From assembly GCF_044324875.1 (NCBI RefSeq), contig NZ_CP172185.1: a stretch of 64,000 nucleotides of DNA; one strand, written 5' to 3'. Origin of the DNA: Escherichia coli. Its GTDB lineage: Bacteria; Pseudomonadota; Gammaproteobacteria; Enterobacterales; Enterobacteriaceae. This document shows, one piece after another, positions 3,274 to 10,729 of the stretch (positions are counted from its first letter, which is position 1; each line of letters opens with the position of its first letter). Under the pieces are notes generated by a model, which saw only the letters and a program-made list of their open reading frames with translations, ran no database searches and was not told where the DNA came from. The translations under genes and the position numbers were made by a program.

Positions 3274-4458
3274 TTACTTAATACCGTATTCTCGGCTTAA
3301 CCGGCCGTGCAACCTCAACACATTGGTTTCAACTGCCGTCACCACGTTCTCCGGAAAATCTGTCGGTAATGAAGTCTTCACGTTATCCAGTGCTGCCGGA
3401 ATCATTCTGGCAAAGTCACTCAGGATTTCATGCATCTGCACTTCCGGAAATTTCAGCAACTTTGCTGTCGCCAGAAAATGTCGCGGATAAATTTTATCGA
3501 TTGCCGTTTTTTTGCCTTTGGATGCGTTAAGCCCCATTGCCAGTTTGAACCACTGGAACACCTGAAACTTCATAAAATCATAGCGATCTTTCAGCGCCTC
3601 GCTGGACCCCATCAAAAAAGCCATGATCCGCGCGATGCCTGGGCCTCCATCTGATTCATATTTCACCGATGAAGTTAAACCGAATGTCTGACACATATCC
3701 TCCTGTGGCAAGCGAAGTAAAACCGTTCGCTCAGCATTCCAACGCCTGTCAAAACGTTCGACCGCTAACGCGCGCACATTCCCCGCTTTAATGATTTCTG
3801 CGTCCGGCACATTCAACCCAAGTTCTTTCGCCAGCAGCAGACAGTAATACTCATTATCAACGCTTTGGCTGAGATCGAGCGTCGCATTGGGCTGCCTGAT
3901 TTCGCCAATCGGTAATTTAATGATGTGCGTCGTCGGCGTTATTCCTTTCGGAATGCACCAGTCATTGCCTATTCTGAGCAGCGCTGTCTTCTCCTGCGCG
4001 CCAGCAACCGAGATGCGAAAGTCATTTTCTTCTCTAATCATGCCCAGAGGGATATCTGCTTTATAAGCCGTTAATACTTCTTCAAGTCTGGCTTCAGTAA
4101 GCTTTTCCCATGCCATTATCGGATGCGTTACGGTTTCGTCTTCGGGTATTAACGTCACGGCACCAACGCTGTCTCGCCCTATTTCTGACAATAAATCAAA
4201 CGGTTGTCTGGATTTGGCATGATAACGTTTAACGATCCGGTCACGTACAATCGGGCTATCGGGTAACAGATTATCGAAGAAGTTAAATACGGCATCAGAG
4301 GTGATATTCCCCCTCTGCAATGGCAGCGAAAGTGACAACGGTCTGGCATAACGGCTGGCTAACCACTCCGGTGCATACTTAAAGGTGTGCGCGCCGTTGG
4401 CTAACTTCGTTAACTCGCCTACCCGCTGGTTGTTCATCCAAGTGACAAGTTTAGGCAT
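3274..4458 (-). CDS. hipA: HipA serine/threonine kinase toxin homolog with in-frame internal deletion of ~46 residues (catalytic core missing)
   Basis: N-terminus MPKLVTWMNNQRVGELTKLANGAHTFKYAPEWLASRYARPL and C-terminus LRLHGRLSREYG.K match HipA. Product is 394 aa versus 440 aa for K-12 HipA. At the junction ...KFQVFQW-FK-LAMGLNASKGKK the segment recalled as LIGATDGHAKNFSVF...GIHISDL is absent. Start reassigned from ORF-track 4515 to ATG at 4458. Confidence 0.85.
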   Translation of the reverse strand: MPKLVTWMNNQRVGELTKLANGAHTFKYAPEWLASRYARPLSLSLPLQRGNITSDAVFNFFDNLLPDSPIVRDRIVKRYHAKSRQPFDLLSEIGRDSVGAVTLIPEDETVTHPIMAWEKLTEARLEEVLTAYKADIPLGMIREENDFRISVAGAQEKTALLRIGNDWCIPKGITPTTHIIKLPIGEIRQPNATLDLSQSVDNEYYCLLLAKELGLNVPDAEIIKAGNVRALAVERFDRRWNAERTVLLRLPQEDMCQTFGLTSSVKYESDGGPGIARIMAFLMGSSEALKDRYDFMKFQVFQWFKLAMGLNASKGKKTAIDKIYPRHFLATAKLLKFPEVQMHEILSDFARMIPAALDNVKTSLPTDFPENVVTAVETNVLRLHGRLSREYGIK

Positions 4459-4724
4459 TACCACTCCAGATCTTGCTGTTCTGTTGATTCTGGCGAGGCA
4501 TTTTTCGCGTCGCATAGCGTCATTGAGAGTTCAAGCGACTGTAAAATCTTAAAAAATGTCGTGAGCGTGGTATTGTCAGGGTTGTTTTCGAAATTGGAAA
4601 TTGTCGCCTGCTTAATACCGATTTTTTTCGCCAGCTCGCTCTGCGTCCAGCCATTTTGCTGACGAACCAGTTTCATTGCATTCGCTAATTGCGTTGGGTT
4701 ATAGATCTTCTGAAAGCTCATCAT
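4458..4724 (-). CDS. hipB: HipB antitoxin / HTH-XRE transcriptional repressor
   Basis: 88 aa MMSFQKIYNPTQLANAMKLVRQQNGWTQSELAKKIGIKQATISNFENNPDNTTLTTFFKILQSLELSMTLCDAKNASPESTEQQDLEW; stop overlaps the hipA ATG by 1 nt as in the known hipBA operon. Confidence 0.9.
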   Translation of the reverse strand: MMSFQKIYNPTQLANAMKLVRQQNGWTQSELAKKIGIKQATISNFENNPDNTTLTTFFKILQSLELSMTLCDAKNASPESTEQQDLEW

Positions 4725-4745: not shown

Positions 4746-4859
4746 TATCCGCTCAAGGGGATATTATCAGTTTTATCCTTTAGTGGGGATAAAGTCAATC
4801 AGGAAACACATCTTATCCGCTGTACGGGATAAACGCTGCGATATCCTCGATCGCGGATA
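4746..4859 (-). promoter_or_regulatory. hipBA promoter-operator region with four HipB operators (TATCC-N8-GGATA)
   Basis: Four exact copies of TATCC-N8-GGATA at 4746..4763, 4774..4791, 4814..4831 and 4842..4859, immediately upstream of hipB. Confidence 0.8.
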
Positions 4860-4907: not shown

Positions 4908-7900
4908 TTACCAGCTATATTTCACTCCCAGCATGCCCTGAGTATCGCTATAGCCTTTATCACCTAGTTGCACACCGACATTCCCCCACAGGCTAAGGTT
5001 GTTATTTACTTTCGCCTCAACCCCGGTACGTACTTCACCGAGATTACGCGCACCATCACGGCTTACGGTTTGACCATTCATCTTCACTGCGTAGACTTTG
5101 CTGTTGTTGATCCAGTTCGCTTCAATGTAAGGCTGGAACTCACGCTGTTTACCATCGTCACGCTGGTGATGGCTGTTCAGGTAGGTTTTCACCCCAAGTC
5201 GCGTTTGCACGTTTCCGTCGCCTTCCGTTTCAATGCGTGTTCCGTCTTTCCGGGTATGGTCAGAATCTTTCACACCCATCCAGGTGATTTGTACCTGTGG
5301 CTGGACGTACCAGGTATTCAGCGTCCCTTCGCTGCCGCTAAAAGTTCCCGCTTCAAAGGTATACCCACCCTCAACAGAGGCCGTCACACCGCGAGAATCA
5401 TAGTCGTCAGCAGAACGGTTATCGGAACTGACGCTGTTATCAAACCAGTTATACAGCGCCCAGCTGTCAACATAAGCGCCGGTCTTATTCGCATCGTTCT
5501 GATACCAGGTCGCGTACAGTCCTGCGCTGTAACCGCTGATGCGCCCATCCGATTTATAACCCACACGATTACTCTGAGTATTACTGTGCTGATTGGCGTA
5601 GCCTGCCATCACGCCAAGATGCCAGCGATCCTGCGCGTTGCTACTCCACTGCGCCAAATCGCCTCCTAGCTGCAATACATAGCGGTTAGCCTGAGTATTT
5701 AGCTGGCCGTCACCGGTCCTGAAACGTTCGTGCCCCCCGACATGACGCATCCACATACTGCTTGCCGAACCCTGAGAATGCAGTGAATCTGTATACTGCG
5801 GCTCACCCAGACGGTCGTGTAAGCGATGGCTAAACAGCGAGTTGGCTGCGGCAATGTTGCTGATATAGCTTCCGGCCTCCGGGCGATAAACTGATGGGCC
5901 TTCCGGATCCACAACAGGGGGATTATTGATGGGATCGGGTGTATCCGGTGGCGTTACGCCTTCCCATTTACTGGTCAGATACCAGTTTTTCTCGTCATTC
6001 CCCTTCCCTTTAGCCAGCGTGTAGACGTAAGCCCCAGCTTCGACAGTTCCGGTGGTCAGCGCGAAGTTACCTGCAGAATTACCGCCAACCTCAATGAGTT
6101 CAATACCGTTGACCGTTTGTGCACCGACGCCGCCAATGTTATCAACCCGAACGCGAGTGTTCCCTTGGGTATCGCCTTTCACGTTCATCTTATCGGTGGG
6201 CGAATTATCGCCGCCCAGCGTCGCGTTGAACGTCATCAGGCCATTGTTTCCATTATAGTTACCGTTAACGGTCAGTACATTCCCCGGTTTCCCCCCTTCG
6301 CTGTTCATTTGAACCGTGCCACCATTCTCCAGGTTACCGCCGACAGTGGTTTTAGCGACACGCAGTGTCCCCCCTGGCATAACGTTCACATCACCTGCAG
6401 TGGTGACATTTCCCGACATCACACCGCTGTTATGGATATTAATGTGCTGACTTGCCATATTAATGGCAGAGTCGGAACCGAAAGCAATTTCACCACCCAC
6501 GATATCCGTCGTACCCTGATACGCCGCGGAATCGTTGTTAAGAGTCAGGATCCCGGTACCCAGTTTTGTCACATCACCGCTACCGCTGATACTGTGCGTC
6601 ATCGCCCAGCTACGCTCAGTGGAGATGGTGAGCAGGCCATTATTGATAACGGAAGCATCACCCAGGTTTTTCTGATCGTTGACGCTGAGCGCGCTGCCTG
6701 TATCAATGTTGAATTGCCCCACAAAGCGGCTATTATCGCCATCCAGCTCTACATCTGTCCTGGCGGTTGCGCTCACGATACCCTTCCCGCTTATGCTATT
6801 ACGCAGTTCTCCAGTCACGTTTTTTAGCGTTAACAGACCGTCATTGGCAATATTTCCTCTGCCTAACCCCTGCGTATTATCGAGGCTGACTTCCGCATTT
6901 GGGCTAATGCTGGTTAACGCATTGTAGCGTGCATTAAGCCCCTCGATAGCCAGTGTTCCCCCTGTAACATTCAGGTTTCCGCCACCTGTCAGTTCACCCT
7001 GACTGATCCCACCTTTATTTACCGTGAGCGCCCCCTCTTTGAACAAAACAGTCGAACCCATCTGCCCGGTGAATGTCTCTACCGTCTGCGTCGATCCATT
7101 AAGATCGACGATGGCCGCGTTGCTGATGTTCAGTTCCCGGGTGTTGCCAAGTGCACCATCCGCATCGGTACGTAATGTCCCCATCTGAACGTAGGTTGCC
7201 CCCTGATAGTCGTTCTGACCGTTGGAAAGCGAAACCTGTCGTACCGTATTGATTGCCAGATCCCCTTCACCACCGATTTTTGCCGACATATCGGCTGTTG
7301 CGCCATAGGCTCCGCCATGTTCGGCTAACGTCAGCTTTTGCCCACCATGGATGTTCAGCGCTTTCAGCCCATAGTTAACGTACAAACCATCACCTGGTGC
7401 GGTCGTGAGGCGGAATCCATAATCACCCTCGGCGACCACTGTTCCGTTTTGTGCAATGTGTAACTTTTTGTCCGCTTCCACCGCGTCGCCCTGTAAATCA
7501 CGTAACGTTAATGAGCCACCCGATCCAATAACCGTTTGCGCCTTCACCAGTTGAACGCCGACATGGCTATCATCGTGTTCCAGCAAATTGAGCGTCGTCA
7601 GAGGGTTATTCGCCATGGGATCATTCCACGGTTTAGGCACGTCGATAAGCACGTCGCCCATCCCGTTTACCTGATAGTTACGGCCTTTCCAGGTGTAGTC
7701 ACCCGTGCCGACAACCAGCGTATCGACGCTGATATATCCCTCCGCAAGCGTCGCAGCAGGTATATCCGTATCGAAAGTGAGCGTACCGCCATTCATGGCT
7801 AGTCCACCAATGGATTGCTCTCCCACTTTTACCGATGTGGTATTTTCACTGTCAGACTGAAGCATCGCGTGAGTAAGCGCAGCGGTGTTGTCGCGTTCCA

Positions 7901-9723
7901 GTGTGAAGGTACTGTCTTTCAGTTGGGCAACACCGGCGAATTCAGTTCCTGTTGCATGGGTAAAGCCAAACATTTTGTCGGAGGATGACAGCTGCACTCG
8001 CATCAAGCCATCGCCTTTGAGCGCATTGGTCAGCGTGTAATCTCCTGCACTGTTCGTTGATGCGAGAATGTCGAGCGTACCGGGGCTTGCAATGGTTACT
8101 TCACTCGAACCCATGCCTGTTACCCCATCTGCCGTATGTGACGCAATAGTCAGGAGGCCGTCATTGACCAGCGTTTTACCACTATAAGTATTCCCTGCAT
8201 TGAACACCGTATGGCCTGCATCATGCATCACTTTTCCGTCTTTATCGTCACCCGTAATCAGCATATCGACCTGGTAGCCGGCATCACTGTTATTAGTATG
8301 ATTAAAGACAAAAACGCCTTCGCCAAGACCAAACTCCACTTTCGTCGCATTGGTGATAAACCCGGCATCTGCCGCCGCCTCACCGTGAGCAGCACCAATG
8401 TTTAGCGTTCCTACAGCAGGTTCAAAAACACCTAAGTAAACTTCTCCACCTTCGACATTCAACGTGCCGTTATTCGTCAGGGTTAACGTACCCGTGCCTG
8501 TCGTCCCTACGTTCATATTGAATGTTTCAAGAAGAGAGTTCTGCCCATCCACCCGCACGTCGCCCTTACTTTTGTCATTGAGAGCTATTTGTGTATCACG
8601 CGCTTTAACTATACCTCCGGTGGTAATATTCAGTTCACCCGTGCCTAATACACCGACCTGTAGCAATTGGGCGTTAGTAGATGACGTTTTTAAATTCCAG
8701 AGACTATCCGTTGAAATATTAACTATCCCCTTACCGGAGGCATTTCCTCCGATAAATCCATAGCCCGTTGAATTAAGAGTGGCACCATTACTGACATTTA
8801 CGATGCCGCTACCAAAATTACCGACATTGATACCTACAGTATCGAACGATGATGTCGCATCCATCAGGTTCAGTGTGCCGATACCGCTTGCTTTATCGCC
8901 CAAAAAAGTAATATTTTGCGATACGAACTTACCGCCATCGCTGATATTGAGGTTTCCGACACCCGCAACACCAATGGTGGTATAGACATTCTTATTGACC
9001 TCCCACATCCCCCCCGTGGTGATGCTGACATTCCCGACGCCGGTTTCTCCATAACCGAGTGAGCTTCCTCCGTTGCTGACAACAAGCCCCTCATTACTGA
9101 TATTCATTTCGCCGTGGCCGTCATAACCAAGATTAGTTCCGAGATTAGTGATAACGGAGTTCTTATCCTTAATAGTAATGTTGCCTGTGCCTGTTTCTTT
9201 CATCCCCGCAGTGATAATTCCCGAATCTACTTTTCCTTCACTCGAGACATTAAGTTCACCGTCGCCAGCATCACCGATATAGATATAGCGGAAAGCTTCG
9301 CCCGTTCCGAGGAAATTCCAATGCCCTTTATCGGTCACGTTGACGACACCGTGGGACCCGTCCTGAACGCCCACAAATGAATATTCTTTGTTATTAATCA
9401 GTCCATTATTGGAAATATTGACTTTGCCATTACCGAAATATCCATTATAGAGTCTGCGTACCGTGATAACAGAGTCTTGATCCTGCACATTCAGGGTTCC
9501 GATACCGGTGGCATTGCCACCGATAATCGTATTTTCAGCCGTAATCAGCCCCCCCTCGCGAATAGTCGCTTCCCCCGTGCCTTGATTGCCAATTTGAAAT
9601 TCAATTGAGGAATCATTATTTTTTATTAGCCACTCGCCACCCTTTTCAACGACAACCTTACCATTGCTGTTCGCCTGATATCCTACAATGGCGACGATTG
9701 AACTCGTGACGTAACCCTTATCC
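4908..9723 (-). pseudogene. yneO: Autotransporter adhesin (YdeK/YneO-like) truncated at its 5' end by IS1; no signal peptide
   Basis: 1609-aa ORF whose first 5 codons lie inside the IS1 end (TTG start at 9737). Gly/Asn/Thr-rich repetitive passenger and a C-terminal beta-barrel ending ...GMLGVKYSW. N-terminus MAASPDKGYVTSS... has no signal peptide. Symbol given by synteny (between hipB and lsrK). Confidence 0.8.
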
Positions 9724-9778
9724 GGTGATGCTGCCAACTTACTGATTTAGTGTATGATGGTGTTTTTGAGGTGCTCCA

Positions 9779-10054
9779 GTGGCTTCTGTTTCTATCAGCT
9801 GTCCCTCCTGTTCAGCTACTGACGGGGTGGTGCGTAACGGCAAAAGCACCGCCGGACATCAGCGCTATCTCTGCTCTCACTGCCGTAAAACATGGCAACT
9901 GCAGTTCACTTACACCGCTTCTCAACCCGGTACGCACCAGAAAATCATTGATATGGCCATGAATGGCGTTGGATGCCGGGCAACTGCCCGCATTATGGGC
10001 GTTGGCCTCAACACGATTTTACGTCACTTAAAAAACTCAGGCCGCAGTCGGTAA
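9779..10054 (+). CDS. insA: IS1 InsA
   Basis: 91 aa [51 protein letters not shown]... Confidence 0.95.
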
Positions 10055-10476
10055 CCTCGCGCATACAGCCGGGCAGTGACGTCATCGTCTGCGCGGAAAT
10101 GGACGAACAGTGGGGCTATGTCGGGGCTAAATCGCGCCAGCGCTGGCTGTTTTACGCGTATGACAGGCTCCGGAAGACGGTTGTTGCGCACGTATTCGGT
10201 GAACGCACTATGGCGACGCTGGGGCGTCTTATGAGCCTGCTGTCACCCTTTGACGTGGTGATATGGATGACGGATGGCTGGCCACTGTATGAATCCCGCC
10301 TGAAGGGAAAGCTGCACGTAATCAGCAAGCGATATACGCAGCGAATTGAGCGGCATAACCTGAATCTGAGGCAGCACCTGGCACGGCTGGGACGGAAGTC
10401 GCTGTCGTTCTCAAAATCGGTGGAGCTGCATGACAAAGTCATCGGGCATTATCTGAACATAAAACACTATCAATAA
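9973..10476 (+). CDS. insB: IS1 InsB (transposase made as InsAB' by -1 frameshift)
   Basis: 167-aa ORF overlapping insA in the -1 frame; the A-run frameshift site TTAAAAAACTC lies in the overlap. Confidence 0.9.
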
Positions 10477-10729
10477 GTTGGAGTCATTACCGAAAATTAC
10501 CATCATCATATTTAACAAAGAATAGCACTAATTGCTAAAAAAAGAAGTTTATTAAACCCCTTTTTCATCCATTAATGCCTTTAGGAATATTCGATATAAA
10601 ATAAGGGTTATGCTTAATGCTTTAAGAAAAATAGCAATTTCCCCTTGAATATATTACGGGCGATGGAACGATGAATCTGCAAGCTGGCATTTAACAAACC
10701 AGCTCTAAAAGAAGGGAAATAAGAATACT

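Follow-up and report, generated by a model that had tools for sequence, protein, structure and literature searches.

A recent in-frame deletion of the kinase core of HipA, with hipB and its operators retained, in a lineage of Escherichia coli

The hipA gene in the 64,000-nucleotide stretch of Escherichia coli DNA analyzed here (contig NZ_CP172185.1; herein the window) has lost 138 bp in frame, and with them the segment that carries the catalytic and Mg2+-binding residues of the HipA kinase. The antitoxin gene hipB and the four HipB operators upstream of it are retained. We conclude that this is very probably a recent, lineage-fixed, kinase-dead loss-of-function allele of hipA, in a hipBA module that has entered the first stage of toxin-first decay.

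Table 1. Features of the hipBA locus in the window
Feature	Position in window	Strand	Description
hipA deletion allele	3274..4458	minus	394 aa + stop
Deletion junction	3547..3549	minus	hybrid codon TTC (Phe) connecting HipA W303 to K351
hipB	4458..4724	minus	88 aa + stop; same as hipB of the closest relatives with intact hipA
HipB operator TATCC-N8-GGATA	4746-4763		perfect
HipB operator TATCC-N8-GGATA	4774-4791		perfect
HipB operator TATCC-N8-GGATA	4814-4831		perfect
HipB operator TATCC-N8-GGATA	4842-4859		perfect

Results

A Single Gap in hipA Covers the Catalytic Segment

The coordinates of the locus are collected in Table 1; the start ATG of hipA shares one nucleotide with the hipB stop codon (TAATG, at 4458). 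When the 394-aa product was compared with Protein Data Bank (PDB) chains using phmmer (3DNT and others, 440 aa), its residues 1 through 303 aligned with HipA residues 1 through 303 and its residues 305 through 394 with HipA residues 351 through 440. Alignment of the window DNA to the intact hipA of strain C4 leaves one 138-bp gap, the flanks of which are 100% identical. The sequence reads CAGTGGT up to the deletion point and TCAAACTG beyond it, giving the junction peptide ...FQVFQW-F-KLAMGLN; the microhomology at the junction is 1 nt, a T at window position 3548 that could belong to either side. In the protein, one Phe stands where L304 through L350 (47 aa) had been, so that 46 aa net are lost. 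The missing block, LIGATDGHAKNFSVFIQAGGSYRLTPFYDIISAFPVLGGAGIHISD(L), contains D309, N314, and D332; no other stretch of HipA is as conserved in an alignment of 15 orthologs.

The N-terminal Couple_hipA domain is present (PF13657 and TIGR03071 match residues 4 through 103), and the P-loop with S150 and the ATP-binding K181 are kept, as judged from the ortholog alignment. The match to Pfam HipA_C (PF07804) ends at the junction, covering model positions 1 through 131 of 213 at 105 bits, versus positions 1 through 211 at 175 bits for the intact protein. The deletion product has neither the catalytic loop nor the Mg-binding Asp, and the segment adjoining them is gone as well.

A first-pass annotation of this DNA had described a product of 394 aa against 440 aa with both termini matching, and codons TGG TTC AAA at the junction (window 3552..3544). 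The phmmer alignment to HipA of known structure bears out the lengths and termini, as well as the K-12 sequence and residue numbering that it used, and the position and hand translation of the three codons are correct. The annotation had also placed Asp309 and Asp332 within the lost block; the alignments indeed show a single in-frame 138-bp gap that takes out both.

The Deletion Product Is Predicted to Be Kinase-Dead

The HipA toxin acts through glutamyl-tRNA synthetase, which it phosphorylates (PMC10627512). Loss of the catalytic loop (D309, N314), the following β-hairpin, the Mg-binding D332, and the adjoining segment would leave a product unable to phosphorylate GltX or itself and hence non-toxic, a prediction that draws on the point-mutant literature. 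According to PMC3376134, which cites Correia 2006, HipA no longer causes growth arrest or tolerance when it carries either D309Q (catalytic) or D332Q (Mg2+ site). Because either substitution by itself abolishes toxicity in that account, that the product is kinase-dead and non-toxic is a strong inference. To the first-pass annotation the module looked naturally detoxified, with a product that may retain HipB-binding or regulatory roles. The structural part of this reading stands, the deletion being single and in frame with D309 and D332 gone and hipB and the operators intact; detoxification carries over from the point mutants as a prediction, and the retained role is speculative.

hipB and Its Operators Are Retained

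HipB matches the equivalog model NCBIfam NF007271 from end to end (residues 1 through 88; 184 bits, cutoff 79), and the four perfect operators compare with 0.07 expected by chance. The regulatory region is that of strain C4, which has an intact hipA, but for one spacer base: window position 4847 is T (plus strand) versus G in C4, CB6837, and K-12. This position lies in the N8 spacer of the promoter-distal operator, adjoining the GGATA half-site, and the change is common to all assemblies with the hipA deletion and private to their lineage. The preservation of hipB (88 aa, 1-nt overlap) and of the four operators noted at first pass is confirmed, with this base as the one caveat. The hip promoter was not among the hits of a consensus promoter scan.

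HipB by itself binds the O1O2 operators with a Kd of 0.6 nM (PMC3376134). As hipB, promoter, and operators are intact and HipB alone binds at sub-nanomolar Kd, autorepression of the operon should persist; that is, HipB should still repress its own promoter in the deletion lineage.

hipA Lesions Are Common and Recurrent in E. coli

Loss of hipA function is frequent in E. coli and has arisen repeatedly. Full-length hipA (≥80% coverage) is found in 4,549 of 5,426 complete genomes, leaving about one in six without it, and the forms seen, with L016 (NZ_LR778152.1) among the examples, are an O157:H7-type gene without its first 254 nt, losses of the C terminus, and remnants of 40 to 60 nt. A protein search with the 394-aa allele, from which the best 120 clusters were taken, returned 85 clusters of E. 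coli HipA in which one internal stretch is deleted in frame; among these best 120 clusters there are ∼76 distinct in-frame deletions of 22 to 131 aa, spread over residues 87 through 374. Eight other deletion alleles were checked at the DNA level, and each sits at this locus next to an intact 88-aa hipB; one of the eight, EC21, carries a 627-bp hipA deletion in a complete genome.

Other kinds of lesion accompany the deletions. Frameshifts of ±1 occur at an A6 run at hipA nt ∼935 through 940 (CAT GCA AAA AAC, encoding H311-A312-K313-N314), within the stretch deleted in the window, and are represented by clusters P0101 (1,326 member sequences), P0089, P0095, and P0098. In-frame internal tandem duplications (P0002 through P0005) give products of 495 to 677 aa; P0005, for example, follows HipA as far as residue 331 and resumes from about residue 171. 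The proteins found also include some in which the HipA_C domain is joined to LsrK or DgcF domains (P0148, P0202, P0245, P0249, and others), along with many DgcF-GlsB and LsrK-autotransporter fusions. All these fusion proteins look like the outcome of larger deletions by which neighboring genes of the region were joined in frame.

In the same database and at comparable score cutoffs, the number of distinct in-frame deletions of 20 to 90 aa is 63 for hipA, 15 for dgcF, and 14 for lsrK, which is about four times as many for hipA as for these neighboring, non-essential control genes. As the protein search scores in-frame alleles best, the share of in-frame events relative to the neutral one third is not readable from these counts. 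The fourfold excess could reflect more than neutral decay, for instance selection that favors detoxification or the keeping of a scaffold.

Selection for detoxification would make the window allele one of many convergent events, each favored for removing a costly toxin, for example where HipB is limiting. The deletion counts speak for it, as do the many other lesion types at hipA and the smaller number of distinct full-length sequences in the main clusters (∼6,900 for hipA versus ∼9,800 for dgcF). The same excess is expected, however, if loss of hipA is neutral and the control genes are under purifying selection; moreover, hipB and the promoter are as in relatives that keep an intact hipA, bar the one operator-spacer SNP, and most E. 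coli retain the full-length gene. We therefore consider positive selection possible but rather unlikely, and prefer loss of function by toxin-first decay. The in-frame outcome would most simply reflect a one-in-three chance together with the fact that in-frame alleles stay visible as full-length open reading frames.

A Retained Role for the Truncated Product Is Improbable

A kinase-dead HipA might instead be kept as a functional partner of HipB, one that still folds and binds HipB as well as operator DNA, protects HipB against Lon, and makes autorepression tighter, so that the in-frame outcome itself was selected. Several observations would fit. The N-terminal domain (1 through 303) and the C-terminal helices (351 through 440) are untouched, and in the Shewanella complex it is the C-terminal helices that contact HipB and DNA. 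In E. coli, HipB makes contact with the N as well as the C domain of HipA, and bound HipA keeps Lon away from HipB (PMC3376134, PMC4150777). An intact 88-aa hipB accompanies the deletion at nine of nine loci examined, the window included, and in-frame deletions are in excess in hipA over the control genes.

Against such a role, the other deletions are scattered over HipA, some losing most of the N-terminal domain, and no common scaffold is kept. Frameshift alleles that lose the whole C terminus are at least as common, P0101 alone accounting for its 1,326 sequences, and the loss of 46 core residues from the kinase fold is likely to be destabilizing. AlphaFold2 gave a pLDDT of 57.4 for the deletion product and 59.6 for the intact control, both of low confidence and from shallow alignments of 15 to 16 sequences; these models speak neither for nor against a folded product. 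On this balance we regard a retained HipB partner as improbable, and toxin-first decay remains our reading of the allele.

Two further possible signals of selection were considered and set aside. The sparing of the first ∼86 and last ∼66 HipA residues by the deletions was rejected as scaffold evidence: both control genes show the same sparing, which marks it as a clustering artifact that likely arises because the main 90% clusters take in proteins whose deletion is close to an end. Selection on structural modules found no support either, as the deletion hotspots fall in helices or strands as often as in loops (mapped on the low-confidence AlphaFold2 model of intact HipA).

Deletion Breakpoints Cluster in hipA

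Coincident pairs of deletion endpoints in hipA number 177, against 98.7 ± 10.6 expected, a count that no simulation out of 2,000 attained; the range used for the null is slightly too wide, and with a tighter range we estimate that ∼123 would be expected, which leaves a clear excess. The same test detected no endpoint clustering in the control genes dgcF and lsrK. The hipA breakpoints cluster at residues ∼110, 187, 213, 222, 235, 297, 318, and 350.

Individual alleles bring this to nucleotide precision. P0038 (residues 267 through 349 deleted, 44 contigs) has exactly the same right breakpoint as the window, between hipA nt 1048 and 1049, and the same hybrid Phe codon. The two are independent events, because their left breakpoints and their hipA backgrounds differ. 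Six right ends verified in DNA fall within nt 1049 through 1056, four of these alleles having been picked for their clustering at the protein level, and three alleles break at nt 953/954. Throughout the alleles checked in DNA, the microhomology is 0 to 3 nt.

These data raise a broader scenario, in which hipA is a hotspot at which internal rearrangements recur rather than a gene in passive decay, owing to a specific break or template-switch mechanism, to selection for in-frame gutting of the kinase with hipB kept, or to both, and in which the window allele is the most successful product, its protein perhaps still a partner of HipB. Taken as a whole, we give this scenario little credence.

For the window allele itself, one illegitimate-recombination event at 1 nt of microhomology would have taken out the 138 bp, and its right end appears to fall at one of the recurrent hipA breakpoints. 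Slippage between direct repeats was ruled out, as the repeats of the region lie 106 to 109 bp apart rather than 138 and the junction homology is 1 nt. The right arm of an 8-nt inverted repeat (AGATCGCT / AGCGATCT) ends exactly at the right breakpoint; we build no mechanism from this repeat.

The Allele Is Real, Young, and Fixed in a Clonal Lineage

The exact 394-aa protein occurs on at least 131 contigs (247 index blocks) from NCBI and Logan (SRA-derived) assemblies, one of these contigs being 5.75 Mb long, and is present in NCBI nr (EHS0460984.1, EII4854300.1, EIQ9232874.1, EIX4563823.1) and in UniParc. Two examples, L002 and L003, one of them an NCBI assembly and the other a Logan assembly, have identical junction DNA. 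Among the clusters listed it is the most widely sampled in-frame hipA deletion (131 contigs versus 44 or fewer for any other); this wide sampling fits a neutral allele carried by a successful clone and is not proof of neutrality.

The survey for the same junction that had been proposed at first pass, carried out with a 50-nt probe centered on the junction, gave 0 hits in 5,426 complete RefSeq E. coli genomes, yet at least 131 contigs encode the identical protein; every sampled genome that covers the whole query matches its flanks as two pieces 138 bp apart. A sequencing or assembly artifact, which the absence from complete genomes might suggest, has practically no standing given the same protein on these contigs, independently made Logan assemblies and the 5.75-Mb contig included, the identical junction DNA of L002 and L003, and the want of any repeat able to cause collapse (microhomology 1 nt). 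Because identical protein and junction recur in independent NCBI and Logan assemblies, the deletion is a genuine allele. It is real, and it is fixed in a clonal lineage.

Over 25 kb, the nearest complete genomes are CB6837 and ECA64, at 99.9% identity; both are Shiga-toxin-producing strains of ST663, O77g:H18, phylogroup D (PMC13248637). CB6837, ECA64, and C4 encode intact HipA (WP_001125443.1), and the 138 bp are the only difference from the window hipA: outside the gap there are 0 mismatches to hipA of C4 or CB6837, and the neighboring genes are the same (autotransporter, LysR regulator). That the locus has the same place in the chromosome, with hipB upstream and overlapping by 1 nt, and is near-identical to intact hipA outside the gap points to orthology with the hipBA locus by descent. 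As the junction is absent from the 5,426 complete genomes and the nearest relatives have an intact hipA, the deletion is young. One derivative of the allele, P0008, has acquired an additional N-terminal lesion.

The Autotransporter Gene Next to hipB Is Also Disrupted

In the same lineage, the neighboring autotransporter gene has decayed by two independent lesions, one of which may be a repeat collapse. In the window, a complete IS1 (9724-10491, 768 bp; its InsB ORF, 9973-10476, matches NCBIfam transpos_IS1) stands in place of 845 bp that are present in CB6837 (L004 9863-10707). The lost segment comprises the 5' end of the ECSE_1600-family autotransporter gene adjoining hipB, together with the region upstream of it, and window 4908-9724 is consequently a headless autotransporter remnant. 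The sister short-read assemblies L002 and L003, which have the same hipA allele, keep the 5' end of this gene. They lack 518 bp inside it (window 5349-5866), with the frame shifted and a short AG(C)TTCC homology at the junction; those 518 bp are present in the window and in complete genomes. Either the autotransporter was inactivated a second time, independently, or the 518-bp gap is a repeat collapse.

Discussion

Implications of the Allele and of the Wider Pattern

If the product is inactive, as predicted, this lineage would be a natural hipA-null background with hipB intact, and HipA-dependent persistence, including the hipA7-type route to high persistence, is predicted to be unavailable to this strain. 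The allele itself is previously undescribed but ordinary, natural loss of toxin function in toxin-antitoxin (TA) modules being already known; as toxin-first decay is already established, a single allele adds little. Our literature searches returned nothing specific on this deletion or on natural in-frame hipA deletions. The more interesting lead is the wider pattern of dozens of in-frame hipA deletions, clustered breakpoints, and A6 frameshifts in catalytic-loop codons, which we did not find described in the literature searched. Confirmed by a phylogeny-aware census, this pattern could offer a quantitative handle on the cost and dispensability of HipA in nature, and on a short-homology-independent deletion mechanism in E. 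coli.

Comparison with Known Systems

The closest known system is the K-12 HipBA type II TA module (PDB: 3DNT/3DNV for the Ser/Thr kinase toxin HipA; the antitoxin and repressor HipB is of the Xre family), with which the window shares the locus, the gene order, the 88-aa hipB with its 1-nt overlap, and the four operators. HipA residues 1 through 303 and 351 through 440 are collinear with the K-12 protein and about 98 to 99% identical to it; the window allele differs in being without residues 304 through 350 (D309, N314, D332), and is predicted to be kinase-dead and non-toxic.

Engineered HipA D309Q and D332Q (Correia 2006, as cited in PMC3376134) lose the same two catalytic residues. These mutants keep their fold and have been used in binding and structural work, whereas the window product lacks 46 core residues, so that its folding and its binding to HipB cannot be assumed. 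The other natural hipA lesions (the O157:H7-type 5' truncation, the A6 frameshifts, P0038, and EC21) affect the same gene with the same predicted consequence; they differ from the window allele in left breakpoint and in hipA background, and so arose independently.

Chromosomal TA modules in E. coli decay via inactive-toxin mutants (by drift), deletions, and nonsense mutations (PMC7167474). The toxin-first decay of ccdO157 (Mine et al. 2009), as summarized in that review, offers the nearest precedent: there too the toxin is inactivated with antitoxin and regulatory sites intact, in a lineage-specific manner and at a conserved position. The two cases differ in toxin family, and the window lesion is one in-frame deletion with no further decay except in the derivative P0008. 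With a toxin that is predicted to be inactive, an intact antitoxin gene and operators, restriction to one lineage, and an intact hipA in close relatives, the window locus would represent the same course of toxin-first decay.
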